From the NCBI GenBank assembly GCA_965223905.1, contig CBDCXV010000010.1, forward strand, positions 1,056,001-1,120,000: a stretch of DNA of 64,000 bases, written 5' to 3'. This DNA comes from Candidatus Latescibacterota bacterium. GTDB taxonomy: Bacteria > Latescibacterota > UBA2968 > UBA8231. Numbering within the stretch: position 1 is the stretch's first letter; each line of letters starts with the position of its first letter. This document shows, in pieces, positions 24,128 through 52,197 of the stretch. The notes beneath the pieces are model-generated. The model made no database searches. It saw only the letters and a program-made list of their open reading frames with translations, and was not told the origin of the DNA. The translations under genes were made by a program, and so were the position numbers.

Positions 24128-25570
24128 GGCTCGTCAGTAGAATTGGTGGGTGAATTGGGGTTCGGGTAAATCGCCAAGCTGATGAAATGAAGCGATTTGG
24201 AGTGCCTTGAAGGTGCGGAATCCGAAGGCTTTTCTCACCGTCAGATTCCATTTCAGGTTCAAGCCCTCGACCATGCCGTTGTTGAACTGCTTGTGAGCCC
24301 GGAACCAATTGAGGAGGAGCTCTTGATGGCGGCGCAGCATCTTGGCGACGTCTTTCATCGGTTCGATGGTGCTTCGCATCGTGCGGAAACACCAGCGGTG
24401 GAGGAAGTTCTCTGCCCAGGCGGGGTAGGTGTAGTCCCAAAAGCGCTGGAAGTCCTCCTTCAGCAGGTAAGCTTTGACGGTGCGCAGGTTCATCTTCAAG
24501 AGCTCGGACAGCTTCAAGTCCTGGGTGTCGGTGAGGTTCTCCTTGCGCTTGAGGAAGCACCAGCGGCTCTTGCACAGGACGGGATCCTGGCCCTCCTCTT
24601 TGAGTCTGCGGGTCTCTTCGGCACGGACTTTGTCGAGGGCCTTGCTGAAGTGCTGCATGAGGTGAAAGCGGTCGAGAATGTGGACCGCCGCCGGGAGCCG
24701 ATTGCCGATGACGGTGAGGTAGGCTTTCCAGATATCTGAGCAGATGACGGCGATCTGGCCCAGGAAACTGGTCGGCTCCTTCTCGCCGGCCGCTTCTTGC
24801 TTGCGCTGGTGCTCTTGCTCCAGTTCGGTAAAGCCGTCGTCCAAGGTCTGCTTCGTCCGCTTTTGGCCCATCCACAACAACCGGCGGCGGTGCGTGTCGA
24901 TCTGGTACAGCAGGGTCAGATAATGATGGCCCTTACCAAACTGAATTTCATCCACGCCGAGGGCGGTGACTTGGTCGAGGCGGCGATGGGTGAGCCCATA
25001 GTCCACGACGTACTGGACGGAATGGTAGACCTTGTCCCAGCTGGTCCGGAAGGAGCGCGCCACCTCCGTCCACGACAGCTTTTTGGCCCACCGCGCCAGG
25101 AAACACCGGTAGATGTCGGTCAGGTGGTGCTTGCCCGTGCTCCAGGGGACCTTCTCGACGACCACCCGGCCGCAGCCTTTGCAGGCAACCCGGCGCATCC
25201 GATACACCAGAAAGACCGGGAATCCCCACAGCGGAACAAACTCGAACCGCCGTGCAGCGGTGGCCGTGTCATAGGTCGGGGACAACTGACCGCAGCCGCT
25301 GCACTGGGCCCTGGAGTTCTTTCGGGGCCTCAGGCGCACCATGATCCTTCCGTGCTCGTCAAAGCCACTCTCTTCAAACACAAACCGCTTGAATTTCGTG
25401 CACCGGTTCAGTACCGTGATCAGGCGCATCATTCCCACCAGGGTAAGTCGGGATCGGTCTTCGGCGACTGTCCCAACATACCGGGGATGATGCGCCTGGG
25501 CTATCCTCGGCTTCCTCTATGCCCATCAGCGCTCGCGGGCCCTTTCACCCACAGATTCTGCGGAGGAGCC
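24128..25570 (-). mobile_element. ISL3-family insertion sequence
   Basis: Ends GGCTCGTCAGTAGAATTGGTGGG and CCCACAGATTCTGCGGAGGAGCC form an imperfect IR with typical GGCTC termini. Confidence 0.93.
24134..25438 (-). CDS. ISL3 transposase
   Basis: Zn finger (CSGC...CKGC), LGVDE, CSDIW, DRFH, NGMVEGLN..W...RKAFGFR. Confidence 0.95.
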   Translation of the reverse strand: MGMMRLITVLNRCTKFKRFVFEESGFDEHGRIMVRLRPRKNSRAQCSGCGQLSPTYDTATAARRFEFVPLWGFPVFLVYRMRRVACKGCGRVVVEKVPWSTGKHHLTDIYRCFLARWAKKLSWTEVARSFRTSWDKVYHSVQYVVDYGLTHRRLDQVTALGVDEIQFGKGHHYLTLLYQIDTHRRRLLWMGQKRTKQTLDDGFTELEQEHQRKQEAAGEKEPTSFLGQIAVICSDIWKAYLTVIGNRLPAAVHILDRFHLMQHFSKALDKVRAEETRRLKEEGQDPVLCKSRWCFLKRKENLTDTQDLKLSELLKMNLRTVKAYLLKEDFQRFWDYTYPAWAENFLHRWCFRTMRSTIEPMKDVAKMLRRHQELLLNWFRAHKQFNNGMVEGLNLKWNLTVRKAFGFRTFKALQIASFHQLGDLPEPQFTHQFY

Positions 25571-26162
25571 AAAAATTGAATAAGGCACCTCTGCTCTTCT
25601 TGATTTTATCAGGCTTAGGTTCTTTTGCACGAGCATAGGCTTTGAGGATGATGTCCACTGGAAATTTCCTGCAGTAATTCTTGTAAAGACGAAGATTCTT
25701 CATGTCATCCAATCCATCCGCGATTCGGTATGCCAGCTGATTCTCTGGGGTAGATGACTCGGTGTCCCCATTCTTGCTGTGGACATCCCTGCGATCGCTA
25801 TCGCCAGTATATAAATCAGGAGAAGAAGAATAGCTATCGTAGGGAATTGGTACAGCGATTTTTGCGACAGCGATTTCCGTTGGGGACAACGATTCCCCTG
25901 TGTTTTTCGGGATTTCATAGATGGACAAGCGTGATTGATTGAAACCTCGGCGATACCCAATCTTACCCTGCTTTGTCAAGCTCAACACAGCCCTGTTCGT
26001 GGTGTTCACCGAGAGCCTGCAGTGCTGGGCAAGTTTGCGCATGGACAGCATGAACCTGCCGCCAGCTCCTCCGCACAGGCTTTCCAAGGTCCAATACACC
26101 ACTGCTTCTGATGGACGTTCAAAGTGCGGCAATGCTTTGGATTGTGATTGCGATTGCTTCAT
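25571..26162 (-). pseudogene. wHTH replication-initiator-like protein, C-terminus truncated by ISL3
   Basis: N-terminal wHTH (SMRKLAQHCRLSVNTTNRAVLSL..QGKI); C-terminal helical domain ending KSRGALFNF at the IS end; ATGA-coupled to the XRE gene. Confidence 0.6.
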
Positions 26163-26461
26163 GCTGAATGAGATGAATGCTCGTCTTGGCGCTTCTGGAA
26201 CAGCTCCACGCGCCTGCGGCCCACTGGGTCATAGATTTCATCAAACAAGCGCGGATAAATATCCCTGATTGGCCGTTGCAAAGCTGCCTCCAGCTTTATC
26301 ACGGTCTTGATGGATGGCAGTTTGCGGCCTGCCTCCATATGAGAAAGAGAGCTGACGCTTTCGTAGCCCATAATGCGCGCCAGTTCCCGCTGTTTCAGTC
26401 CCTTTTCCTTGCGTAATTGCCGAATTCGGTTTGGGTACCGAGTAGATGATGATCCCTCCAT
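26159..26461 (-). CDS. XRE-family HTH regulator
   Basis: NRIRQLRKEKGLKQRELARIMG...LSHMEAGRKLPS. Confidence 0.9.
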   Translation of the reverse strand: MEGSSSTRYPNRIRQLRKEKGLKQRELARIMGYESVSSLSHMEAGRKLPSIKTVIKLEAALQRPIRDIYPRLFDEIYDPVGRRRVELFQKRQDEHSSHSA

Positions 26462-26749
26462 AGGATTATTGTATCGTGAGAATACGATTACTGCTGATAC
26501 GCTTTACAATACCAAACCCACCACCCTATCCAAGCGGGGCTGAGTTGTTTCAGGAGATACATTAGAGGAAACATGAATTCCAGATAAATAAGAGATGAAA
26601 TAGTCTTCAAGAGAGAGATGCCAAGTTGTGATTGATATACCCGCAGTTTCCTGTGAGCCTATCAATCGATATCACCCTGGTTGTCCACAGTTATTGATGC
26701 GGTTGAGCGAAAGCCGAGCTGTAAAGGTCATCTATTGCGGCTCTGCGCG

Positions 26750-27463
26750 TCATACGACAACACTACCTTCATATACTTTCAACGTGCATCCGATGTCTTT
26801 GGCAATAGAGGACGCCAACTTTTCATACTGTCTTGGGACTACTATGAAGTCTATATCTTCATTGGAAAATCTCAACGCGTAACAGATGTCCTTAGCATGG
26901 CCGGAAACATTGTCAAGAGTAATATCTCCCACTTTGGCATCATTCAGTTTGAAATTATCTCCCTTCATTCTCACATCAATAGGCAAACGCCATTCGCGCT
27001 GGTCGTAATTAGGAATTTCGTTACCGCACGTGTCCGTGTGGCTATACTCCTGTAGAAGAGCGAGTGCAAGTAAGAGAGCGTTCACTTGGTCTGCAGTGAT
27101 ATCTGTTTCATTCCACCCTGAATCCACTTCCTTGTCGTGCATTTACGCCGCAACTTTAAGCAGTGGATTGAAAACATCTTTAAGAGCCGCACAACTCACG
27201 TATGCGACTGGACGGACACCGTATTTGTACAGAGTTTCACGATTGAAACCGATTCCTATTTTGCCAAATTTCTGACAGATGAAACGGCAATCCTGCAGCG
27301 GTATCTCCGTGAAACACACCATGCGTATTTTGTACTTCGGATTCCCTCTGAAACGGTCTGCGTACGTGAGGCGCAATAAACGCGACTTGCATATGTTTCG
27401 GAGAACGTCAAGGGCTTCTGCTTCGGTTTTCCCGCGACCTGTCCAGTGAATCAATTGTCCCAT
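26750..27463 (-). pseudogene. AbiGi-like protein split by one in-frame TAA (27143-27145)
   Basis: LIHWTG, MVCFTEIPL, FGKIGIGF...GVRPVAY precede the stop; YDQREWR and LRFSNEDIDFIVVP follow it in the same frame. Confidence 0.7.
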
Positions 27464-27564
27464 GATTTCGGCTCCGAGTTTGTGGTTTAATTAGTCTAAT
27501 AGAGTGTCCCTTCTGGCAACATCACCCCCATTGCCCGCACCCGCCCGCCCGATATCATAAAGGC

Positions 27565-27759
27565 ATGCAGCTTACCCAAGAAGCGCTCAACGAATTCAAA
27601 CAGATCTACCGCGAAGACCTCGGCATCAACCTTACCAATGAGGAGACGCTGGGCCTGGCCACTTCCTTTTTCAATCTCATGCAAGCCGTCTACCGTCCCC
27701 TTCCAGACGACGAATCCTATAGCGAAGATTGCACCCCCGACCAAGACGTGGTAGACTGA
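27565..27759 (+). CDS. Small helical protein upstream of the serine recombinase
   Basis: MQLTQEALNEFKQIYREDLGINLTNEE...LMQAVYRP resembles small genes I recall preceding this recombinase type. Confidence 0.7.
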   Translation: MQLTQEALNEFKQIYREDLGINLTNEETLGLATSFFNLMQAVYRPLPDDESYSEDCTPDQDVVD

Positions 27760-27930
27760 CCCCGTTGACCCGTCCACAGAGCAACCCGTAAGATTTTTGG
27801 TTCGCATTGCTGGCCCCAAAGGGGCGGTCTGCCAACAATACAACTCCTTACGGGGCGCGTGGGTTGGGTCAACCAGGCGCTCCTTTTGGTTTACCGTCCG
27901 AAGCTTCAGCAAGGACGGCTCCTCATCACT

Positions 27931-29712
27931 ATGAACCCACCATCATCAACCCCAATCAAATACCTCATCTACGCGCGCAAATCCGCGGAAAGCGAAGACA
28001 AGCAAGTCGCATCCATTGATTCCCAGATAAAGGAGCTGCAAGACATAGCCCAGCGTGACAATCTGGAGATAATTGACGTTCTCTCCGAATCCAAGTCTGC
28101 CAAGGCCCCGGGCAGGCCAGTATTTGGAGGCCTCATTGCCCGTGTTTCACGGGGCGATGCAAACGGTATCCTGTGCTGGAAGCTGGACAGGTTAGCCCGC
28201 AACCCGGTTGACGGCGGCAATATCAGCTGGATGCTCCAGCAAGGTCTGATTCAGCACCTCCAGACCCATGAGCGCGGCTACTATCCCACGGACAATGTGC
28301 TCATGATGGCCGTGGAACTTGGAATGGCCAATCAGTTCATCCGCGATTTGAGTGAGAATACCAAACGAGGACTACGCGCCAAAGTTGAGCAGGGCTGGTA
28401 TCCGGGTGTTGCCAAACCTGGATACTTGAATGAGTTCCATCGCCAGAAAGGCGAACGCACCACTCCAAAAGATCCAATCCTCTTCCGGCTGCTTAGGCGC
28501 GCCTTCAATCTCATCCTCGCCGGCCAGGCTCCATCGCAGATATTAGACAAGCTCAACAATGAGTGGGGATTTCGCACGCTCAAACGGAGAAAACTCGGCA
28601 ACAAGCCCCTTGCCCGTAGCACCTTGTATCGGATTCTCGCGGACCCCTTTTATTACGGCCGCTTTGAGTATCCAGAGGGCTCAGGCAACTGGTATCAGGG
28701 CAAGCATACGCCCATGATTACGGAGGATGAATTCTGGCACATGCAAGAGCTCTTGGGCAAAGAGGGCAGGCCTCGCCCCCAAAAGCGCACCTTTGCGTTT
28801 ACTGGGTTGATGTCCTGTGGCGAATGCAATGCTGCCATCACTGCTCATGCCAAAGAACAAGTCATCTGCTCGGTCTGCAAACGCAAGTTCGCCTGCAAGA
28901 ATCGCTCAGCTTGTCCAGCCTGCAATACCAACATCGCCGAAATGCGCGCGCCTAAACACTTACACTACGAATACTACCATTGCACCAAGCGCAAGATTCC
29001 CTCGTGCTCCCAGGGAGCCTTGGAAGTCAAGAAGCTTGAAGCCCAAGTCAGTGAACTTCTCGCGTCCCTCACCATCCCGGAGCGCCTCAAAGACTGGTAC
29101 CTGAAGCAAATAGAAAACGCAGCAGAAACAGAGATTGATGAACAGACCGCCGTCCGAAACTCCCTTCAGGATGCGATTGATGATTCCAAGAAGCGCGTCA
29201 ACAACCTACTGGCGCTCAAAATATCATCCCAAAATTCCAACGGCGACCTTTTGAGCGACGAAGAATTCGCTGCCCAGAGGACAGCGTTGACCCGTGAGAT
29301 GAACCAGCTCAAACAAAAAATGGCCAGCATAGAAAAACATGCCGACCACTGGAGAGACGCCTGTGCAAAGACCTTTAACTTCGCCTGTTGCGCCGAAGGC
29401 CACTTCAAAAATGGCTCACCAGAGACCAAACGAGCCATTCTCGCTGCCCTTGGTTTGAACCTAACTCTTATGAACAAAAAACCCCGAATTTCCTTGCACA
29501 AACACTTCATCTTGATGCAGAAAATCCACCAGGGAGTCAAAGCCCAAAACGGTAGGTTTGAACCTTAAAATTTCCGCCAACCTAAAGGAAAAAACAGGGT
29601 TCTTGACCCTGCTTTTTCCACATGGCTCCGAGGGTGGGACGAAGTTAGAACCCATTTCATGAAATCCACAACAAGTATCCGCATCCCCGACCTCACACCA
29701 CCAAATCCGTAG
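27931..29712 (+). CDS. Large serine recombinase; TAA at 29566-29568 is probably premature, natural end 29712
   Basis: YARKS catalytic Ser, WKLDRLARN, LSENTKRGL..K...GW.PG..GY, recombinase domain, Zn ribbon (CGEC...YYHC) with an extra CxxC pair, coiled coil. Confidence 0.92.
29587..29640 (-). other. Putative att site: tRNA-3'-end-like segment followed by a terminator
   Basis: The minus strand reads GTCCCACCCTCGGAGCCA, then GCAGGGT-CAAGA-ACCCTGT-TTTTT. Confidence 0.6.
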
Positions 29713-30925
29713 ATCACCTCGCCTTATTGTAACGACCTGCAGACAATTGGTAAATCCACCGAACACCTCAATTGCCGCCGCATCCGACCATACGGCGACC
29801 TATTGCGAGAATTCCACGATTCCATTATACTGCCCATATAAGCACTATTAAGAAGCGGTACTATCACGGAGGCTATGAACATGAACGATCCTAAAATCAC
29901 GTACTTTCCCGTCGGCAATGGAGACACCAGCCTGATTCGCCTCTCCGACGAGACCGACATCATTATTGACTGTAACATCACCGAGGAATCCCAGGACGAT
30001 TCGGAGAGCGCCCGCTACGATGTTCGCAGTCATTTGCTGAAATCCCTCAAGAAGAGGGATGGGGTCTCGTATGCAGACGCTTTTGTCCTAACTCACCCAG
30101 ACCAAGACCACTGCCGTGGATTTGCGGAGACCTTCTATACTGGCAATCCCGCCCAGTACAGCGATTCTCATAAACGGGATGGTCTCATTCTCATTGATGA
30201 ATTGTGGTTTTCGCCGCGCATTTTTTCTCCGCACGAGGATGAGCTGAGCGAACCTGCCAAGGCGTTCCACAAAGAGGCCAAGCGGAGAATGAAGCTCTAT
30301 CAGGACGGAGCGTCAGAGCGGAGCAACTCTGGCAACCGGCTCCGCATTATCGGCTACTCGGACAACCCTGAGCTTGAAGGCTTGGAAGCTATCATTACCG
30401 CGCCTGGCAACTATATCAATCTCATCAACGACAGCGTTAAGGATGACTTCTCGTTCTTTGTGCATGCTCCCTTCCGCAAGGATACTGATTCAAAATGGGG
30501 CGAGCGCAACGATACCAGCGTAGTCCTGCACACCCAATTTGAAGTAGATGGTGACGAGCGAGCTGGTTTAGCATTCTTCGGCGGTGACGCTGGATGCTCC
30601 ATATGGGAAGAGATCCTTGAAAAAAGTGATGACGATACTTTAGAGTGGGATTTGTTTATGGCGCCGCATCACTGCTCCTGGACTTTTTTCAGTGAAGAGC
30701 CTTACAAAGACAACCAAGTGCCGAGCGAGAAATCTTTGGAAATCCTCGGGAAGAAGCGCGAGGGGGCCCTTGTGGTGGCCCCCTGCAAGCCCATCAAAGA
30801 CGATGACGACAACCCGCCCCACTACGCCGCCGCCGAAGAGTATAAGGAAGTTGTCGGAGAGGAAAATTTTCTCGCCACGATGGAACACCCTGACGAGGAA
30901 CATCTGCTCCCAATTGAGTTTGAAA

Positions 30926-32476
30926 CCCTAACGTTGCATAAATCGGGCTTGGAACGTGTGCTTGCCGTCAAGCCGCCTTGTGAAGCGCGTCGATGAAATG
31001 CAACAAGTCGTTTTCGACCATGGGATTGGGGGTGAGCGTTAGCGTCAAGTTTCCCTGGGGCTGCGTGAGACGACCAGCGCGCTGGATGAAGCGGTGACGG
31101 AGGGTGTCCAGCGTCTGGAATAACCAGGCGGCCGGGCGCTTGGCACGGGAGTAAGTGGAACGCGGATGGGCCAGCATTTGTATCTCTCGTCCCAGGTTAT
31201 GCGCCATCATCGCACACAGCGTGACCATCTGGTTGCCGACCAACCGCCGGGTGGGGATCAAATCAAGGCCGGCGTGCTGCCTGGCCTCAGCGAAAATGCC
31301 TTCCTGAGAGCCGCGGCCATGGTGGAAGAGGAGCACGCTGCGAGCTGAGCCCATCTTGTTGGTGACGACGACGCGGTAGTCGTAGTCGACGACGCGGGGC
31401 TCGAACAGATCCAGTTGCAGGGGGCCCTTCACCTGGCGTCGCACCTGGTGTCGCACAAACAGGAAGCGGTATGTAGCCGGCCACGATTTCGGCTTCCAGT
31501 CGCTTTCGAAGTAGCAGCGCTCGCCATCCAGATGACGCCAGCGACGCCGCGACTCGATCATCTGCTTGAGCACGGCAAAGCGTTCGAAAGGGACGCTGAC
31601 TGTGCACTCGACGCCATACAGGTCCATGAGGGTCAGCGTCTTCTGGTTGAAGAAGGCACTATCCATGCGGGATTCGAGCACGACCTTGGGGAAGGCGGCA
31701 CGGACGCGGTCGAAGTTGACTATCATGAATTCATGCGCCCCCTTGCTGTCATGGACATTGCCGGATCGGTGAAGGACATCGAGAAACTGTCCGGTCTGAG
31801 CCACGGTGGCAAACAGGTTGTAGTAACTGCGGGCGCCCTTCTTCTTGGTGTTGTATCCGACGGCGGTGCCTTCGGCGTGTCCCTGCGTAGACACCACCGA
31901 GCCATCGAAGTCCAGGGTCAAGCGGGCCAGCTGTTCCCGCTCCAGGCCCTCGACCACCAGCGCTGAAGAAAGCGCGCGCACCTGCTCGACACTCTTTCGA
32001 TCCATAGCGCCCAGTGCACGAGAAATGGTGGCCACATCGGGTAGACGACGTAACCCCAGCAGCCGCTGCACCAAGGGGTCGTCGCGGTAGTAGTCCACGT
32101 CCCGCAAGCGCCGGAAGCCCAGCAGCAGATGGACGATGACTACCAAGACGATGCGATGCGGCCCAAAGATGGGGAAGCCCTTCAGGTGCTGGAAGCACTG
32201 CTTCAGTCGGGCCTTCAGATCCAGACGCTGGAATAGCGCCACAAAGACAATCACGCCAGCAAACGATGTGAGCTGCTGATCTTCGAATCGGATAACCGGC
32301 ATCTTGTGAAAACGGGCCAGAATTGCTTGTTTGCTGAACTTCACTTTTGGTGCCCTCCTGGATTGAGGGGGTTGGTGTCTTCGCTAACACCATAGATCCC
32401 CATTCTTCAGAGGCACCGCAAGTGACAATGCGGCAGTTCATTCCCTCACATCCGCAATTCTTATGCAACTATGGAG
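30926..32476 (-). mobile_element. IS1380-family element, copy 1
   Basis: Imperfect IRs CCCTAACGTTGCATAA / TTATGCAACTATGGAG; TGAAA duplicated at 30921-30925 and 32477-32481. Confidence 0.93.
30968..32344 (-). CDS. IS1380 transposase (intact)
   Basis: LTSFAG, TLDFDGS, GYN, RSGN, RMDSAF, HHGRGSQE, MAHNL, TLRHRFI. Confidence 0.92.
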   Translation of the reverse strand: MKFSKQAILARFHKMPVIRFEDQQLTSFAGVIVFVALFQRLDLKARLKQCFQHLKGFPIFGPHRIVLVVIVHLLLGFRRLRDVDYYRDDPLVQRLLGLRRLPDVATISRALGAMDRKSVEQVRALSSALVVEGLEREQLARLTLDFDGSVVSTQGHAEGTAVGYNTKKKGARSYYNLFATVAQTGQFLDVLHRSGNVHDSKGAHEFMIVNFDRVRAAFPKVVLESRMDSAFFNQKTLTLMDLYGVECTVSVPFERFAVLKQMIESRRRWRHLDGERCYFESDWKPKSWPATYRFLFVRHQVRRQVKGPLQLDLFEPRVVDYDYRVVVTNKMGSARSVLLFHHGRGSQEGIFAEARQHAGLDLIPTRRLVGNQMVTLCAMMAHNLGREIQMLAHPRSTYSRAKRPAAWLFQTLDTLRHRFIQRAGRLTQPQGNLTLTLTPNPMVENDLLHFIDALHKAA

Positions 32477-32577
32477 TGAAATCAGCAAGAACGGCCCCGT
32501 CAAGGTAGGTTCGTCAGAATCAAGCGCTGTTGCCTCGTCTGCTGCTGTGCAGGCTGCTACAGGAACTCCCCAGACCT

Positions 32578-34923
32578 ATGGCTGATGATCTCCATACGTC
32601 AAATCAAAAAATAGAGGAGCCCGCCAATCTCAGCCCTGCGATAAATGAAGCAATTCTTGATCTGAAGAAAGCATTTTCAGATCAAACCATTGATGCACTT
32701 TCTTGGAATAAGCACTACATAGCCATACCGCTTGATGTAGCGGTTGATTTGCCCGCCCGTGGCCCGGTTGGCTCCTTAGATATTCAAAAGCGAGAGCCGA
32801 TCTACTTACTCCTCCATCGCCAACACTATCCTCATAAGGCACCCTCAGCCTGGTCCAACCGCAAGAATTTTCCTGCATCCATGTTGCCCCACCTGAACCC
32901 AACATCACCGGGAATGGCAGCCAACTTCTGCCTTCACCGGGGCAATTTTGATAACTGGTTCGCAGAACACACCATCGTTGATGTCGTCCAACGGATTCGT
33001 AGTTGGCTACGTGACGCAGCCCGTGACCGGCTGATTCGCAAAGAAGGTGGATTTGAGTTTACCCGCATTTCAGATACGCTTGGCTATACCATCTATGAAC
33101 CATCCGCCTTAACCGAGGTGGTCTATAAAACATGGCGCCAAAACAAGGGAACAGCAGGCTTTTGTTTCTTGTGGTACGACCTGCTGAAAAATCCGAGCAA
33201 AGACCCCCTCATCGCCAAGGATACCTACGCCATACGCCTGGCGTGCTCACTCCTTAGCGAAGACACTGCAAAGCCACGTGAAGTCAGCTTGAAACTCAAT
33301 GGCTTTCACTCAGAGGACAACAAACTGGAACGCATGCTCTTTGGAGTGTTGGCATGGCCTAGCAAGAGGCAGGTCTGCGGGAGATACTTCACAGAACTGC
33401 CTGATACGCTCCGTGCCTTCGTGGAGTGGGGTAAAAGCTTCGGCATTCCAACAAGAACCGCCTTGCAGACCTATCTGTCCAAAGACCTCCAGCTATTGGG
33501 CGGCGTCCCGGTCACAGTCGTCATCCCCAGACCTCAACGAGTTATTGGGTCCAGCTCTCGGCTTGAACTTTTGAATTTCACAGTCAACGCAGCTGGTGAC
33601 CACTGGCCCGAGGATGGAGAATGGAATCTTGATGCAAAGGTCACAAGTATAGGGCACCGAGTCCCTCTCACAGTCCGAAGGGCACGCGATATCTCCTCTC
33701 AACCAGAGGATGTGGACTTCGGTCGCCTACTGTTTCTTGGGTGTGGTGCTGTCGGCTCAAAGCTGGCCCTTCACTTGGCCAAGAGCGGACAGCCGAACAT
33801 GACCTTAGCTGATTACGATGAGCTGTCGCCACATAACCTGGTCAGGCACGGTCTGCTGCACGAAAGCACCGGGAGGAACAAAGCTGAAGCCGTCAAAGAA
33901 GCTATACAAGGGATATTTTACGCGGACAAATCAGTAAAGGTTGACACATACAAATCTTCTGCTTTAGACCTATTTCTCGGCCAGAATCAGAGCATCCTAA
34001 AAGCTCACAAATGGATTATTGATGCCACTGCTTCTTCAATGATGCTGAATGCGTTGAGCCAGGCTAAGATTCCCGATACTCTCGCCTGCTGTCGCTGCGA
34101 AATAGCAGACCATGGCCAACTCGGTTTCTTGAGCGTAGAGGGTGCCAACCGGAACCCGCGACTTGATGACCTTCAGATAATCCTCTTTGATATGGCGCTC
34201 AAGCATCCTCTGCTGTCACAATGGCTCCAAGAAAACAAAGAACAGCGTGAACAGCAAATTGGTTCCGCGCTTGAGGAAATTAACATTGGCATTAGCTGTA
34301 GTTCCGAAACTATGCGCCTTTCAGATGAACTTGTATCACTGCACGCTGCTTCGTTTGCCACTGGTTTCCGTAGTTGTGCGAAGAAAGGAATACCGAACAG
34401 CGCAGGCAGAATACAAGTTAGTGAGTATTGCGAAAAAGGACAATTGACCAGTATTGTCCAGCACTACGATGTTGGGGCAATGACGGTCGTCTCCGCCCGT
34501 AATGATCCATCGTGGCAAGTGCGCCTCAAACATGGTCTTGTAGCAAAAATGCAAATTCTACTCCGCCATGCTAAGCCAAACGAGACAGGCGGCCTTTTAA
34601 TCGGCATGGTCCATTTCAAACGCAAGACTGTTTATATCACCCGTGTTTTGCCTGCACCTGCAGACAGTGTATCCAGCCCTTACGCATTTGTGCGTGGCAT
34701 TCAAGATCTCCCGGAAACCGTATACAAGATTCAAAACCTCACTGGTGGAATGCTCGGTTATGTAGGAGAATGGCACACACATCCAGACGGAGGACCAAAC
34801 TTGAGCTTGACAGACAGAGAAGCAGTTGAGAAAGTTAAATCAAACTTGGATAGCATTCCTCTGCCCACGCACGTAATGATTGTTACAGCCCGTGGCATTT
34901 ATCCCCATATTTTCACTCCCTGA
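32578..34923 (+). CDS. Prokaryotic E2 - ThiF/E1 - JAB/MPN fusion protein
   Basis: E2: YPHKAP...PHLN...FCL. E1: GCGAVGS, DYDELSPHNLVRH, NKAEA, IIDATAS, GISCSSET. JAB: ETGGLLIG, YVGEWHTHP...S.TD. Its ATG overlaps the MBL stop. Confidence 0.92.
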   Translation: MADDLHTSNQKIEEPANLSPAINEAILDLKKAFSDQTIDALSWNKHYIAIPLDVAVDLPARGPVGSLDIQKREPIYLLLHRQHYPHKAPSAWSNRKNFPASMLPHLNPTSPGMAANFCLHRGNFDNWFAEHTIVDVVQRIRSWLRDAARDRLIRKEGGFEFTRISDTLGYTIYEPSALTEVVYKTWRQNKGTAGFCFLWYDLLKNPSKDPLIAKDTYAIRLACSLLSEDTAKPREVSLKLNGFHSEDNKLERMLFGVLAWPSKRQVCGRYFTELPDTLRAFVEWGKSFGIPTRTALQTYLSKDLQLLGGVPVTVVIPRPQRVIGSSSRLELLNFTVNAAGDHWPEDGEWNLDAKVTSIGHRVPLTVRRARDISSQPEDVDFGRLLFLGCGAVGSKLALHLAKSGQPNMTLADYDELSPHNLVRHGLLHESTGRNKAEAVKEAIQGIFYADKSVKVDTYKSSALDLFLGQNQSILKAHKWIIDATASSMMLNALSQAKIPDTLACCRCEIADHGQLGFLSVEGANRNPRLDDLQIILFDMALKHPLLSQWLQENKEQREQQIGSALEEINIGISCSSETMRLSDELVSLHAASFATGFRSCAKKGIPNSAGRIQVSEYCEKGQLTSIVQHYDVGAMTVVSARNDPSWQVRLKHGLVAKMQILLRHAKPNETGGLLIGMVHFKRKTVYITRVLPAPADSVSSPYAFVRGIQDLPETVYKIQNLTGGMLGYVGEWHTHPDGGPNLSLTDREAVEKVKSNLDSIPLPTHVMIVTARGIYPHIFTP

Positions 34924-34945
34924 CATAAATCGTATCGCAAGCATT

Positions 34946-35599
34946 ATGAAAAAACTTGATATCTACCAAACGCTCGCTGTCTTCATGCCGGGCTACTTTT
35001 TTGCTTTTGGCTCCTACATACTTCTGCACAGGCTTGGTGTTGCCATGCCATTTGAGATTTCGTCTATCGGCGGCAGCATTGCCTTGATTGTTATGGCCTA
35101 CGTCATCGGGCAACTGGTCCAAGTAGTTGGTAATGCTTTTGAGTGGCTATGGCGCAAAGTGCGCCCTGTACCTTCGGTGAGAATTCAAAAAGGAGATGAA
35201 AAGATTCTGACCTCACATCAACGTCAGCAACTCATTGACGCTATGAAGCAAAAGGTTGGCTTGCCCGACGGTGATGTCTCCAAACTACCCCGAAGCGAAT
35301 GGTTTTCATACGTAGGTTCAGTGGCCTCAGCAGTCCGTCAAGCAAAGCAAATGGAACAGGTGGATATCTTCAGTGCGCACTGTGGAATGTTTAGAGGACT
35401 CGTGGCCGCAAGTTTTCTCCTCGCTCTCGGCTCGTGGCTCCTTTTGGGAGAACAATGGCACCTGCCTGTTGCTACACTTATTGTGCTTGGTCTTCTTGCG
35501 CTCTACCGAATGGACCGCTTTGATAAGAATTACGCCAGAGAGTTGGTCCGACAGTTTCTGCAAATTGCAAGACAGGAAAACACAGACCAGAAGGACTAG
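34946..35599 (+). CDS. Uncharacterised membrane protein with about 4 TM helices
   Basis: Two hydrophobic hairpins flank a soluble loop (AVFMPG, AYVIGQLVQ, GMFRGL); 22 nt after the E2-E1-JAB stop. Confidence 0.75.
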   Translation: MKKLDIYQTLAVFMPGYFFAFGSYILLHRLGVAMPFEISSIGGSIALIVMAYVIGQLVQVVGNAFEWLWRKVRPVPSVRIQKGDEKILTSHQRQQLIDAMKQKVGLPDGDVSKLPRSEWFSYVGSVASAVRQAKQMEQVDIFSAHCGMFRGLVAASFLLALGSWLLLGEQWHLPVATLIVLGLLALYRMDRFDKNYARELVRQFLQIARQENTDQKD

Positions 35600-35629
35600 G
35601 GAATTAGCGAAAGATCGGAATTTTAGGTC

Positions 35630-35902
35630 CTATAACTCAATCCGCACGATCAGCTTGCCATCCAAACTCTCGTCCCGCAAATATCCTTCTTCCTCTAATT
35701 GCTCCAGCCAGCGTTTTAGTTCCACTACAGACACGCTGATTTCTTCGGCTATACGCTGAAAAGATGCCCGGTAATAGCCGGTTTTGGGGTTCATCCGGGT
35801 GAGAATGTAAAGGTAAAACCACAAGGCCTGTCCTTGCTGTTCAAAGTCCTGCAGGAACTTCCTTGGCCAGGTCCTGGAGTAAATTGTCAGTTGCTCTGCC
35901 AT
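35630..35902 (-). CDS. Small winged-helix DNA-binding protein
   Basis: ALWFYLYIL...SFQRIAEEISVSVVELKRWLEQLEEEGYL. Confidence 0.7.
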   Translation of the reverse strand: MAEQLTIYSRTWPRKFLQDFEQQGQALWFYLYILTRMNPKTGYYRASFQRIAEEISVSVVELKRWLEQLEEEGYLRDESLDGKLIVRIEL

Positions 35903-36104
35903 CTATCTCTACCATAGCAGATAGACGACGCAAGGGAACTGGGGCAGAGTTGCTCGGGCAGACGCGATGGGTCAGTCGCTTTATGCACCTATATTTGTGC
36001 TCCGACGCCGTTTTGAATACAGTCTGCGACTTCGGTATGATACTTCAGAGCCACCGACAGTGCGGTACGTCCATAGTCGCCAATTCCAAGGAGCTTCTAT
36101 CAAG

Positions 36105-36527
36105 ATGCCAGATATCTCAACCGTCCTAAAACAAGAAATCACTCGCCTCGCAAAAAAAGAGCTCAAACCAATTGCTGGAAGCCAGTCAAAACAAATTCAA
36201 GCTTTGAAAGCCACGGTTAGAGATTTGAAAGGCCAAATCGCTGCCATACAGAAATCTCTCACTAATGCTGCTACTCCTCAACCGTCACCGCCAGAGCAAG
36301 AAGATGAACAAGGAGCAATCCGCATCAGTCCAACGTCAATCAAGAAACACAGAAAACGCCTCCGACTTTCCCAGGCTCAATTGGGAAAGTTACTCGGAGT
36401 CAGCACTACTACCATCGTCTTCTGGGAAACTGGGAGGTCCTCTCCAAGTGGGACGAACAGGGAGCATATCGCCGAGTTGAGAGAAATGGGATTGCGGGAA
36501 GCAAAATCACTTTTAGAAACCATTTGA
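36105..36527 (+). CDS. Coiled-coil plus XRE HTH protein
   Basis: MPDISTVLKQEITRLAKKE; IKKHRKRLRLSQAQLGKLLGVS...WETGRSSP; AAGGAG RBS. Confidence 0.85.
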   Translation: MPDISTVLKQEITRLAKKELKPIAGSQSKQIQALKATVRDLKGQIAAIQKSLTNAATPQPSPPEQEDEQGAIRISPTSIKKHRKRLRLSQAQLGKLLGVSTTTIVFWETGRSSPSGTNREHIAELREMGLREAKSLLETI

Positions 36528-36774
36528 AACACTTGGTTTATCTACCACGGGGCATCAATCTGACCTCCATCAACCCCCATAGCACAGTCACTCAATCTTG
36601 ATAATAGCCTTTGGAAATTTCTGCTTCAAAGCGGTAGATGCAGCTTTCCTGCCCAAAGCCAACGCCTCCTCCTCTGTCAGCCTTAACCGTTACTGTGAAA
36701 GTCGTGTCATTGACAAATTCCAAGCACTCCTAACTTCCTCCCAGTCACAACGGCACATTCCTGAACCCCAGAAT

Positions 36775-37437
36775 TCACACCTTGCTCGTCTTTGCCGATT
36801 GAGCCTTCGCATTTTGAACTCTTCTCTCGTTCCGCTTTTCGTACTCCAGACGCAACTGTTCATCCCGAGAAGGAAGATCATGATATATCTGCTGCGTAGC
36901 ATCACATATTTCTAATAATCCATGAACACGATCAAATCTCTTGGATGGACCATTTTCCCTCCAACAGCTTGGAGGGCCAAAATCACTCAAAAGCTCATTG
37001 CCCGTTAGAATCAAAACAGGATTAAGAGGGCGCTCACTCTTCCAGCGTTTCCTTCCAGCTTTGGCAATCCGAGTGATCTCCCGTAATTCCCGCTTATTTA
37101 ACTCTTTCCGCAGCGTGCAGAACGCAAGCACGGCTCCAGGAAACCTCTTCCCAATAGTTCGCATCCGCACAAAGTCCTTTTGCTCAAATGTGTCAAAGGT
37201 TTTGCACTCCCCAAAAATCACGCCTTCAGCAACACTTCCGAACAAAGATTCCTGCCACAAAATCCCGAAGTCTGCTTCCAATTTCTTGCCTTGCTCACCG
37301 TTGGCAATAAAACAATACGATGGCGTTACCTGTAGGCTATGCAATCGGCAAAGGAACTCCACGGCTAGCAGTACACAATATCCGCCATCAGCATGTCCGG
37401 GAATACTGAACGGTCCAGCTGTCTTGTAGTACCACAC
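36775..37437 (-). pseudogene. C-terminal remnant of a larger protein with a PD-(D/E)XK nuclease-like domain
   Basis: EADF...IFGECKT motif; no convincing start or RBS; upstream sequence is replaced by integrase debris. Confidence 0.5.
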
Positions 37438-37499
37438 ATTGCTTGAGCTAGTCCGAGACCCTCAAGCTCAACATTGAGTGATGGATTCAGTGGATCATT

Positions 37500-37936
37500 T
37501 GTTTCCCAGCCGCATGCGCATCGTCCGCAACCTCTGCCTGTATCGACAGAGGACGGAGCCACACTGCTTCATCCCAGACCTAGAGTTGTTCCCGCGCCCC
37601 CGTGCTCCGCGCCGTCCCTACGTCTTCAGCGAGCAGGATATGGTGCGGCTCCTGCATCACGCCGAGGACCTTGGTTCAAGCTCAAACTCACCGCTACGGG
37701 CCGAGGTTTATCGTCTCGCACTCGTCCTACTCTACACGGCCGGTCTGCGACGAGGCGAGCTCGTGCGCCTGACACTCTCCGACTACGATGCCGCGCAGCA
37801 AACCCTTCACATTCGGACCACCAAGTTCCACAAATCTCGGCTCGTGCCCCTGTCTCGCGACGCCGACCACGAGATGGACGCCTACCTCGAAGCACGTCGA
37901 CGGTTGCCGCACGGTCCGGATGCCCCTCTGCTGTAG
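37500..37936 (+). pseudogene. Tyrosine recombinase fragment (RIT-like)
   Basis: PYVFSEQD, LLYTAGLRRGE, TKFHKSRLVPL; breaks off after PLL. Confidence 0.85.
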
Positions 37937-38866: not shown

Positions 38867-40165
38867 CTATCGTGAGTCGCTTGGAGCGTCGGTGAGGGGC
38901 GTCGGCGGCGTCTGCACTCGCGTGTAGAGGATCGCGTCGAGCACTTGCGGCCAAACGGCCTCCATGCTTCTGCCGTAGCCTATCAGCGAACAGAAGCACG
39001 GCTTCGCGAAAGGGCCCGGCCGCCGCAGGTCGACGAAGAGCGGCGTCTTGCCGTATCGGGCGCAGATGTCTTCGAAACTGCCCGGTGCTGGCTCGTCGAG
39101 CACGAAGCCGCGCCCGAAGCGTCCCGCCTGGCCCTCAGATGCAGCAAAGCCGATGGTGTAAACCCGCTCCCCGTACCACCCGTGCAGGTACTCCCCCATT
39201 GCCTTGCAGCCTCGGCAGAAGTCATCGTTGCCCTCTACGGAGACTTTGGTCAGGTTGTGCGCCTGATGGAATGTCGCTGCCCAGCAGATGATCTTCTTGT
39301 CGGGATAGCGCTCTTCGGCGAGCCAACGGAAGTTCTCGGCCATCCGGCCGTCGCGCATGTTCGTCGTGCCGTACCGACCGTGCTTTTGGGCGGAGTCGGG
39401 CGCGCCTTGCGCGTACTCGAACCTCTCGCGGGCGACGTAGTTGTCGAGGCAGTGCGACCAAAACGCGGTCTCCCTCTCCCCGTGCTTTGCCACCAGCGTG
39501 GGGCGGCTGTCGTCGAAGAGTTCACGCACGCGGCCGAGGGCGGCGACAGCCGCATCGTGCTCCCCCAGAGACGGCTTGTAGGGCCCGGCATTGAGCCGGG
39601 CGTCGGCGCGGAAGAGGGTGATTCTGTCGTCGGTGGAGATCTCCCCGACCGGCCTGAGCATATCATAGAGACGGATCAGAAATTCGCCCGCCAGCCGGCC
39701 CGAGCCGCGTGTGTCGAAGCCGGTGAGGCGAAGGGGCCGCCTCCCCCGGGTGCTTACGAGGTGCTCGAAGACCGGCAGCGCTTCCTTCACATTCCAGATC
39801 CCGAAGATCGAGGCGCGAATCGCGTCAAGCGCCAGCCCATTCTCGATTAGCGCATTCGCCATCTCGCACTCGTAGAGCCCCGACTCGAAGGCGAGCACCT
39901 CGAATCCCATCTCCTCGTGGAGGAAGCGGACGAGCCGCGCCTTGGCGCGGAAGGACTGACCGTCCCCGTGGCTCTGCTCTCCGAGCTGGACGATTCTCAC
40001 ATCCTTGAGGATCCGTTTGAGGGGGGCGAGGTCTCTTGTTCCGGCATTGAAGTCCAGGGTATGGAGACGCAGGGCGTGGCGGTCGAACCAACCCTTCAGC
40101 TCGTGGCCGAGCGGCTGCGAACCCTCTTCCAGGTGCAGTGGCGTAGCGGGGGCAGCCATACTCAC
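38867..40165 (-). CDS. Erythromycin esterase (Ere)-family hydrolase
   Basis: VRIVQLGEQSHG, LVRFLHEEMGFEVLAFESG, RDGRMAEN, KIICWAATFH, MGEYL. Confidence 0.88.
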   Translation of the reverse strand: MSMAAPATPLHLEEGSQPLGHELKGWFDRHALRLHTLDFNAGTRDLAPLKRILKDVRIVQLGEQSHGDGQSFRAKARLVRFLHEEMGFEVLAFESGLYECEMANALIENGLALDAIRASIFGIWNVKEALPVFEHLVSTRGRRPLRLTGFDTRGSGRLAGEFLIRLYDMLRPVGEISTDDRITLFRADARLNAGPYKPSLGEHDAAVAALGRVRELFDDSRPTLVAKHGERETAFWSHCLDNYVARERFEYAQGAPDSAQKHGRYGTTNMRDGRMAENFRWLAEERYPDKKIICWAATFHQAHNLTKVSVEGNDDFCRGCKAMGEYLHGWYGERVYTIGFAASEGQAGRFGRGFVLDEPAPGSFEDICARYGKTPLFVDLRRPGPFAKPCFCSLIGYGRSMEAVWPQVLDAILYTRVQTPPTPLTDAPSDSR

Positions 40166-50640: not shown

Positions 50641-52197
50641 CCCTAACGTTGCAAAAACCTGTTTGAACGAGTATGAGGCGGTTGTGATCAGGCCGCTTGC
50701 TTCAGTGTTTCGAGGAAATGCAACAGATCTTTTTGGGCTTTTGGGTTCGAGTTCATCGTCAGGGTCAACTCGCCCTTGGGCTGGGTGAGCCGGCCGGCGC
50801 GTTGGATGAAGCGATGACGCAAGGTGTCCAGGGTCTGGAAGGTCCACGGCGGCGGACGTTTGGCGCGCGAATAGGTCGAGCGCCCCTGGGTGAGCATCTG
50901 CATTTCGCGCCCCAGGTTGTGAGCCATCCTCGCACACAAGGTGACCATCTGGTTGCCGAGTACCCTTCGGGTGGGGATCAGGTCCAACCCGGCCTGCTGC
51001 TTGGCCTCGCCGAAGATCCCTTCCTGAGCGCCGCGGCCCCCGTGGAAGAGGACCACGTTGCCTGCCGAGGTCCTCTTGTTGGTGACCAGGACGCGGTAGT
51101 CCTAGTCGGTTTCGCGAGGTTGAAACAGATCCAGCTGCAAGGGCTCCTTGGTCTGACGCTTGACCGTACGGCGCACAAAGACAAACCGATACGTGGCCGG
51201 CCGGCTGGCCGGTTTCCACGCACTCTCGAAATAGGAGCGTTCCTCATCCAGATAGCGCCAGCGCTTGCGGGACTCGATTTTGTGCTTGAGTACGGGGAAG
51301 CGTTCGAACGGCACGCTGAGAGTGGATTCGACGCCATACAGGTCGAGGAGAGTGAGCGTGTGTTGGCTGAAGAAGGCGCTGTCCAGTCGAGCCTCGAGCA
51401 CGGTGTGGGGAAGAAGGGCGCGCACGCGATCGAAGGCGTCCATCATGAACTCATGAGCGCCCTTGCTGTCATGGACGTTGCCGGGACGGTGCAGGACATC
51501 GAGGAATTGCCCGGTTTGGGCCACGGTGCCGAACAGGTTGTAGTAGCTGCGCGCGCCCTTTCTTTTGGGGTTGTAGCCGACAGCGGTGCCTTCGGCATGA
51601 CCGCGCGTGGACACCACCGAGCCGTCGAAGTCGAGGGTCAGACGGGCAAAACGCTCACGCTGCAGGGCGTTCCTCACCAAGGTCGAGGACAGCTGCCGCA
51701 CCGTGGCAATATTCGAGGGCTTCAGGGTCGCCAGGGTGCGACTGACGGTGGCCACGTCGGGGAGACGACGCAGCCCCAACAAACGCCGCACGACCGGATC
51801 GTCCCGGTAATAGTCCACGTCTCGCAGGCGCCGGAAACCCAGCAACAGATGCACGATGAGCAGCAACACAATGACATGGGGGCCGAAGATGGCCGAGCTT
51901 TTCACGGGCCGGAAGCATGACTTCAACCGGGCCTTCAGATTCAGCCGTTGAAAGAGCACGAAAAAGACGATCGCTCCGGCAAAGGAAGTAAGCTGTTGAT
52001 CCTCGAAGCGAAGACGCGGGAGCTTGGGAAAACGGGCACAAATCGCTTGTCTGCTGTACTTCACTTGCGGTGTCCTCCTAGAATGGGAGTCGGGTATGTC
52101 TTTGTCAACATCATCGATACCCAATTTCCAGAGGTGCCGCAAGTGACCATGTGCCCGAACAGAAGGGAAATTAGCGCAGTTTTATGCAACCAGAGGG
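50641..52197 (-). mobile_element. IS1380-family element, copy 2; transposase inactivated by an in-frame TAG at 51102-51104
   Basis: IRs CCCTAACGTTGCAAAA / TTATGCAACCAGAGGG; ATTA duplicated on both sides; ETD*DYR where copy 1 has VVDYDYR. Confidence 0.92.

Follow-up and report, generated by a model that had tools for sequence, protein, structure and literature searches.

We have analysed a window of 64,000 nucleotides (nt) from a Candidatus Latescibacterota bacterium (contig CBDCXV010000010.1 of assembly GCA_965223905.1; all coordinates given here are positions in this window), in which lies a two-gene locus of the 6A-MBL type. Its first gene encodes an enzyme with a metallo-β-lactamase (MBL) fold and its second a ubiquitin-type ligase that joins E2, E1 and JAB domains in a single polypeptide. 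The first gene is interrupted by an insertion sequence (IS) of the IS1380 family, which cuts off the last 34 codons, ending in Tyr-Gly. We propose that this lost end is probably the handle by which the ligase takes hold of the MBL enzyme. The features of the locus are:

29875..30925, plus strand: body of the gene for the 6A-MBL MBL-fold enzyme, codons 1-350 (open reading frame (ORF) reading; NCBIfam NF058524)
30921..30925, no strand: left copy of TGAAA, a 5-bp target-site duplication (sequence)
30926..32476, minus strand: IS1380-family insertion sequence of 1551 bp (Pfam, NCBIfam, contig ends)
30968-32344, minus strand: transposase ORF of the IS (Pfam DDE_Tnp_1_4, NCBIfam transpos_IS1380)
30926..30996, plus strand: 23 IS-encoded codons and a stop, which now end the truncated MBL ORF (ORF reading)
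32477..32481, no strand: right copy of TGAAA, whose final base opens the first tail codon
32481..32585, plus strand: severed 3' end of the MBL gene, 34 codons and TGA (reading frame, homologue tails)
32578..34923, plus strand: E2-E1-JAB gene, a Cap2-Cap3 fusion (Pfam, NCBIfam NF058523)
34946..35599, plus strand: candidate third gene for a predicted membrane protein of ~217 amino acids (aa) (recurrence beside 6A-MBL genes)

The MBL body scores 388.4 bits against the NCBIfam equivalog NF058524.1 (6A-MBL_enzyme; cut-off 220), covering profile positions 1-341 of 346, and the E2-E1-JAB protein scores 541.1 bits against NF058523.1 (6A-MBL_cap2_3; cut-off 320). The two genes lie on the same strand with the MBL gene first, as in operon type '6a', in which a specialised MBL-fold protein is followed by one polypeptide with E2, E1 and JAB domains (Iyer, Burroughs and Aravind 2006; PMC1779556). 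Since both equivalogs are matched above their cut-offs, the locus is, judged by gene content, a disrupted member of the 6A-MBL anti-phage system. The system was reportedly named, and validated as anti-phage, by van den Berg et al. in 2024, as later papers relate. Genes and gene order are the same here. A full member has two intact genes; in this window the 1551-bp IS sits inside the first, and the MBL ORF is cut after codon 350 with the loss of its last 34 codons. The ligase gene itself looks undamaged. It carries the Pfam domains Prok-E2_A, ThiF and Prok-JAB, its best solved relatives by sequence are the Cap2 chains 7tsq, 7tsx and 7to3, and all invariant residues are present (C119, GxGxxG at 389-394, D413, R424, K436, C575, E670, H734, H736, S744 and D747, numbered in the translation from 32575; subtract 1 when counting from Met). 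The truncated MBL ORF matches zero Pfam families at E 0.01, and PADLOC, in its 2023 release, which has no 6A-MBL model, returned only weak MBL matches (LmuA, RTasMBL) together with E1-E2/JAB models. NF058524.1 has 346 positions and ends at about residue 354, short of the tail. The truncation therefore leaves the score undiminished, and the broken gene would go unflagged by automatic annotation.

The MBL gene can be reassembled from its two parts. Its body closes at 30925 with ...LLPIEFE, after which foreign codons run from 30926 to a stop at 30994-30996; the truncated ORF is 373 aa as called from 29875, the likely true start being the second ATG, at 29881, which matches where homologues begin. 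On the far side of the IS, the frame from 32481 encodes ISKNGPVKVGSSESSAVASSAAVQAATGTPQTYG and then reaches TGA at 32583-32585. This severed tail consists, in order, of the last β-strand (NGPVKV), a disordered Ser/Ala-rich linker and the C-terminal TPQTYG. In-silico removal of 30926-32476 and one copy of TGAAA yields 384 codons (382 if counted from 29881) with zero internal stops. The closest intact homologue, P0004 (77% identity), is continuous across the join, ...LPIEFEISKNGPVKVDSS...TPQTYGR, and because it reads straight across the same point we take the join to be correct. The MBL motifs HxDxDH (THPDQDHC) and a later His-His pair are present, and the invariant metal-site residues H73, D75, D77, H78, H264 and H265 all lie N-terminal to the cut. 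The gene is single-copy in its own genome. Its 3' end shares eight bases, ATGGCTGA, with the start of the ligase gene, whose ATG at 32578-32580 is made up of bases from the MBL gene's final Tyr and Gly codons: TAT GGC TGA in the MBL frame is ATG GCT GA in the ligase frame. An earlier note on this DNA had described the IS1380 split with its TGAAA duplication and 384-codon join, the overlap of the MBL stop with the ligase ATG, and a swap of the tail for 23 IS-encoded residues that spares the catalytic motifs. All three descriptions are borne out, the first by the sequence, the excision, P0004 and assembled contigs alike.

The element qualifies as a member of the IS1380 family, with a DDE transposase (Pfam DDE_Tnp_1_4, E 1.4e-39; NCBIfam transpos_IS1380, NF033539.1, 231 bits against a cut-off of 180), terminal inverted repeats, imperfect ones that agree at 12 of 16 outer positions, the 5-bp duplication TGAAA and discrete ends. 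Contigs of four public runs (X19, X21, X23 and X24) were compared with 29875-34923. In X19 and X21, both junctions are bridged by single contigs, the left one by 29875-31214 and the right one by 31817-34923, at 0-3 differences; the insertion is thus not an assembly artefact. The IS ends are fixed independently by a 1552-nt contig of X23, which covers exactly 30926-32477, and by X24, where the IS stands at ~400-fold word depth and the unlike flanks start at 30924/30925 and 32476/32480. X23 and X24 are runs from two other organisms, in which a near-identical IS (2 differences) occurs in other contexts, in multiple copies in X24, and this suggests recent spread of the element between organisms. 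In its own genome the inserted IS is the only copy at 100%, and 16 places of at least ~1000 nt match it at 73-77% identity. One of these 16 is a second IS1380-type element within the window, at 50641-52151 (L012), 74% identical to the IS in the MBL gene.

What did the MBL enzyme lose with its tail? Among the 120 close homologues listed of 1366 matches (58-100% identity, almost all 380-387 aa), 118 have [YW]G at or near the C-terminus. In 58 of the 120 it forms the very end; 57 have 1-3 further residues after it, with Arg the first of them in 30, and another 3 have 8-22. Only two sequences lack it, a 334-aa fragment and the truncated ORF of the window itself. TPQTYG itself occurs in 54 of the 120, and the upstream P-x-T is conserved as well (P-x-T-Y-G). 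For the wider family we used 80 species-genome loci from bacteria and archaea, with MBL proteins at 31-59% identity. In 77 of them [YFHW][GA] lies within the last 8 MBL residues, the tails of L042, L058 and L069 having been assigned by eye, and roughly half end exactly there. About half of the homologues encode 1-5 residues beyond the Gly. A third sample consisted of 50%-cluster representatives, the best 150 of 2906 matches, 113 of them near-full-length (340-420 aa): the motif falls in the last 8 residues of 98 of the 113, whereas eight-residue control windows placed further in have it in 3-15 of 113; 54 of the sequences end in Gly and 21 in Ala. The terminal Gly is invariant in the two alignments A1 and A3. 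Aligning the C-termini of homologues, as the earlier note had suggested, thus returned P-x-T-Y-G in the close family and [YFHW]-[GA] family-wide, with a small terminal residue conserved after an aromatic residue or His and with no such motif at the one E1-free locus, L031. The outcome that would have told against the note, homologues without a conserved terminal Gly, was not seen. By these comparisons the tail is a family hallmark and the most tightly constrained feature of the MBL protein outside the metal site. In the literature searched, which took in neither the primary 6A-MBL paper nor Ledvina 2023 nor supplementary files, no description of the C-terminus of the 6A-MBL MBL protein was found. 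In three proteins of the same MBL family, P0150, P0168 and P0247 (504-532 aa), the MBL fold is followed not by the Gly tail but by AGS_C, the Adenylyl/Guanylyl and SMODS C-terminal sensor domain; AGS_C is otherwise known from CD-NTase (cGAS/DncV-like nucleotidyltransferase)-type enzymes, so there seems to be more than one architecture in which the MBL protein takes the place of the cyclase.

The tail travels with the ligase. An E2-E1 match lies directly downstream on the same strand in 76 of the 80 loci. Among the four loci without one, two contigs end 76 and 182 nt past the stop and the others are L067 and L031. At L067 (6001-7794) no stop separates the MBL ORF from a Prok-E2_A domain; the resulting 598 aa, with WG kept near the junction, may reflect either a natural fusion of MBL and E2 or a frameshift in sequencing. 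An apparent MBL-E2-E1-JAB fusion, P0222 (1166 aa), was set aside, as it seems out of frame between its domains, where there is an Arg-rich stretch. L031 clearly has no E2/E1 partner, its next gene encoding a SEC-C-motif protein. The terminal residue also follows the kind of ligase. All 65 Gly-ending loci with a detectable partner have the window-type ligase as best match (L042 assigned by eye), and 11 of 11 Ala-ending loci match the other ligase type best. Pfam, which is independent of the tblastn queries used for this assignment, finds Prok-E2_A in 20 of 20 tested Gly-type partners and Prok-E2_B in 8 of 11 Ala-type partners, the remaining three having ThiF or no match. Overlap of the two genes is common: across the last two tail codons an ATG or TTG stands in the ligase frame, with the frame open onward, in 40 of the 77 loci, this window included. 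In 27 of the 77 the triplet is ACG, TCG or GGG, yet the terminal residues, Tyr, His, Phe or Trp followed by Gly, are kept. The overlap pattern NAT GNN would moreover permit Asn or Asp and then Val, Asp or Glu, none of which occurs among the 77. Because residues are kept where there is no start codon and the permitted alternatives never occur, the constraint is, on the sequence evidence, one on the protein and not on the gene overlap alone.

The intact homologue P0006 (72% identity) was modelled with AlphaFold2 from a 64-row alignment. The mean pLDDT (predicted local distance difference test) is 88.9; the model is confident through residue 360 and falls below 50 for residues 362-379. A tail of ~25 residues is predicted to be disordered. 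The IS site, after residue 350, sits between the confidently predicted β-strands 346-351 and 354-358; the insertion would thus remove a structural strand along with the tail. The top structural match of the model is 9ic4, the β-lactamase-like domain of ComEC (Foldseek E 4.7e-14; template modelling (TM) score 0.76 by target length), the MBL profile also retrieves ComEC chains by sequence, and this likeness suggests a hydrolase or nuclease role. The window's 34-residue tail was then modelled with its own E2-E1-JAB protein. The ipSAE score was 0.66, with three runs at 0.66-0.67 and the best of 3 controls at 0.01; 58 of 80 solved complexes attain this mark, and so do 2 of 110 mismatched pairs. Since the modelling used our own alignments, this calibration is only rough. 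At least 57% of contacts agree between runs and the partner pLDDT is at least 55. Tail residues 20-34 run along ligase residues 703-709 and contact the JAB residues E670, H734, H736, S744 and D747. JAMM-tail complexes have already been solved, and the pass may partly reflect memory. The model supports binding of the tail in the JAB active site, and such docking would fit JAB acting on the tail end, whether by trimming of extensions or by deconjugation.

That the terminal Gly of the MBL protein is a conjugation handle gripped by the ligase is the best-supported explanation of these observations and, in our judgement, the probable one. It draws on the conservation of the tail, the linkage to E2-E1 genes and the analogy with type II CBASS (an antiphage signalling system based on cyclic oligonucleotides). 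In this the earlier note, which had named the tail as the handle, is upheld by the terminal motif, the E2-E1 linkage, the predicted disorder and the JAB docking, and not in respect of the E1 site. Several points weigh against the explanation. The complex model placed the tail in the JAB site and not in the E1 adenylation site, so that the modelling in both sites that the note had called for succeeded for one of them. The 80 loci were recruited by peptide patterns derived from the query, a biased sampling; A1 was built from Gly-type sequences only, which limits what its Gly invariance means; the B-type tblastn queries were drawn from Ala-type loci; and L031 is the only locus available as a contrast group free of E2 and E1. 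Part of the tail conservation at the nucleotide level may serve translational coupling. Lastly, the IS-free allele that the note had hoped to see in reads or sister genomes did not appear: no contig joint skips the IS in X19 or X21, where contigs drop rare variants and may have hidden excisants, and when 526 nt from the 3' part of the MBL gene were searched against 40 related genomes, two of which belong to the same genus, the locus did not turn up, the sole match being 33 nt (E 4e-4) in G018.

Could the tail instead be a pro-peptide? It might serve only as a pro-peptide or autoinhibitory element recognised by JAB, whose cleavage would activate or mature the MBL enzyme while E1 and E2 act elsewhere. 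The docking into the JAB catalytic site and not into E1 speaks for such a role, as do the 1-5 residues that about half of the homologues encode past the Gly, and there is a precedent in the ComEC-like MBL nucleases of the Hachiman and Avs defence modules, proenzymes that are cut and activated by partner trypsin-like proteases (PMC12799240). However, the protein stops at the Gly or Ala itself in 58 of the 120 listed close homologues and in roughly half of the 77 loci, leaving nothing to cleave. That only Gly or Ala stands there, and that the choice covaries with the E2 family, is what one would expect of an E1/E2 substrate, and deconjugation explains the JAB docking equally well. We therefore consider a pro-peptide role unlikely, and retain the conjugation handle.

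By analogy we infer adenylation, thioester formation, conjugation and trimming, as well as the nuclease activity of the MBL protein. Where 1-5 encoded residues follow the Gly, the JAB domain would first trim them. The E1 domain would then adenylate the exposed Gly, and the MBL protein would be passed as a thioester to the E1 and E2 cysteines. The MBL enzyme would be joined via its Gly to a target, which may prime or localise it, and the JAB domain would also reverse the link. That the MBL protein is conjugated in 6A-MBL was already presumed in the field, as in a 2024 preprint.

The closest parallel is type II CBASS, with which the locus shares a Cap2-like ligase, a Cap3-like JAB and a partner enzyme with a flexible C-terminus ending in Gly or Ala. 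CD-NTases are reported to keep a terminal Gly or Ala only in operons with Cap2 and Cap3 (Jenson 2023; PMC10097602). According to the same paper, deletion of the CD-NTase Gly abolishes thioester formation, conjugation and defence, whereas Gly-to-Ala is tolerated. The differences are nevertheless clear. Here the partner is an MBL-fold hydrolase and not a nucleotidyltransferase, E2-E1 and JAB are fused in this locus's ligase, and in roughly half of the MBL genes the coding sequence runs on for 1-5 residues past the Gly; in 6A-MBL the penultimate residue is a conserved one (aromatic or His), and in the CD-NTases, as described in PMC10097602, a variable one. A Pfam scan of the ORFs at 25.5-40 kb, from which some small ORFs were left out, found neither a CD-NTase nor a separate nucleotide-activated effector in the operon. 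By analogy, the locus would function like type II CBASS with respect to its ligase and Gly/Ala tail and is not a member of it. ComEC and the MBL nucleases of the HamM/Avs type share the fold (9ic4) and the HxDxDH-type metal motif. Identity to ComEC is ~16% and this MBL protein has neither a membrane channel nor a competence context, and, unlike in the HamM/Avs type, the partner here is a ubiquitin-type ligase/peptidase and not a trypsin-like protease.

A further likeness is to the modifiers of autophagy. ATG8, LC3 and GABARAP have a single aromatic-Gly end, often with a short pro-peptide that a dedicated peptidase removes before the Atg7-type E1 acts. The MBL protein of 6A-MBL has the same aromatic-Gly end, often with a short extension. 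In contrast to ATG8, the carrier here is a 380-aa enzyme and not a β-grasp ubiquitin-like protein, and the peptidase is a JAB metalloprotease and not a cysteine protease. The possibility that the MBL protein is itself a β-grasp ubiquitin-like protein was ruled out: the model has an αβ/βα MBL fold of ~360 residues and a disordered tail, and only its C-terminal chemistry would be ubiquitin-like. Cap2-type E2-E1 proteins are described as related to Atg7 (PMC11601596).

What has the insertion done to the system in this bacterium? Most likely it is simply dead, knocked out by the IS, given a truncated enzyme without its handle and without a strand, and a ligase gene without its upstream partner and without the overlapping stop and start. 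The earlier note had gone further and held that the IS specifically switches off conjugation. This does not stand, as a β-strand is lost too and the ligase gene is separated both from its partner and from the stop/start overlap; plain inactivation of a mobile defence system is more likely than a specific loss of conjugation. That the IS instead tunes the system as a switch, regulated or reversible, and is not an ordinary hit that disables a costly defence gene, is quite improbable. In favour of a switch, the truncated ORF keeps its catalytic motifs and the ligase all its invariant residues, the near-identical IS is multi-copy and evidently active in the organism of X24, and precise loss of the IS would restore the open frame. 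Against this, the X19 and X21 contigs, in which rare variants are dropped, contain no join across the IS, the cut removes a predicted β-strand, and the transposase is oriented away from the ligase gene, with no promoter-like site at 32345-32578, between the transposase ORF and the ligase ATG, in a consensus-based scan that is weak evidence. IS hits are, besides, common in accessory islands. The weakest alternative, that the terminal Tyr/His-Gly/Ala is kept mainly because its codons (NAT GNN) hold the ligase start for translational coupling and the residues themselves have no role, finds a footing in the 40 of 77 overlapping starts and, to judge from the 27 loci that keep the residues at ACG, TCG or GGG, the absence of the permitted Asn/Asp and Val/Asp/Glu and the conserved P-x-T upstream, is largely refuted as the sole cause and hardly credible.

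A third gene may belong to the system. The ORF after the ligase gene, 34946-35599, encodes a product that no Pfam or NCBIfam family covers, that neither library has as a 6A-MBL part, and that falls in Atlas clusters labelled only "hypothetical protein". When all 2068 ORFs in the 80 loci with a length of 100 aa or more were searched with an iterated profile, relatives came up in 38 loci; in 24 of these the gene sits right beside the 6A-MBL genes on the same strand (14 just downstream of the ligase gene and 10 just upstream of the MBL gene). Two sequence groups of the family are joined by hhalign (probability 98.5%, E 1.6e-15). Its members are predicted four-helix membrane proteins of ~220-270 aa with the motifs WGGxP[ST] and YG[FL]xR[GN]L, for example L013:9459-10229, L020:5259-5999 and L050:9463-10197, and a relative is also present in the E1-free locus L031. 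From this recurrence, the membrane protein may be a third component of 6A-MBL.

Upstream of the MBL gene there is a promoter-like site on the plus strand (29803-29831, consensus scan), and between the recombinase and MBL genes, at 29587-29619, a hairpin with a 14-bp stem and T-runs on both strands resembles a bidirectional terminator. The locus lies in a low-GC stretch from ~25 to 37.5 kb, with 47-55% GC between flanks of 65-68%. Within 25000-37500 are helix-turn-helix regulators, an AbiGi-like ORF (27143-27463, minus strand), a large serine recombinase (27859-29568) and a phage-integrase fragment (37478-37936). Given the GC contrast, the serine recombinase, the AbiGi-like ORF and the integrase fragment, the stretch looks like an acquired defence or mobile island. 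An ORF of the erythromycin-esterase family (38867-40165, minus strand) lies just outside it.

What does a broken copy tell us about 6A-MBL? The value of the locus is as a pointer to a stretch of the MBL protein not covered by the curated family model. For annotation, an IS-truncated gene still scores as a full member, and counts of "complete" 6A-MBL systems can include dead copies. For the system itself, four predictions follow: the terminal Gly or Ala would be the activated residue, JAB would remove the extensions of 1-5 residues, the choice between Gly and Ala would follow the E2 family, and a conserved membrane protein would be part of many loci. None of the four was met in the literature searched, which excludes the primary paper, where they may already be contained. 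The novelty is modest, as the system is known and conjugation was presumed; the tail rules, the covariation of Gly/Ala with E2 and the third gene are modest additions. More tentatively, we offer a fuller picture that we regard as doubtful, in which the enzyme of 6A-MBL would be made as a pro-enzyme that conjugates itself, with an end like that of ATG8, matured and recycled by JAB, its terminal residue co-evolved with the E2 family, in a three-part system where the membrane protein would act as anchor, target or effector. If this is true, 6A-MBL would be a membrane-directed pathway in which an enzyme is itself the modifier, and not a CBASS that lacks its cyclase.

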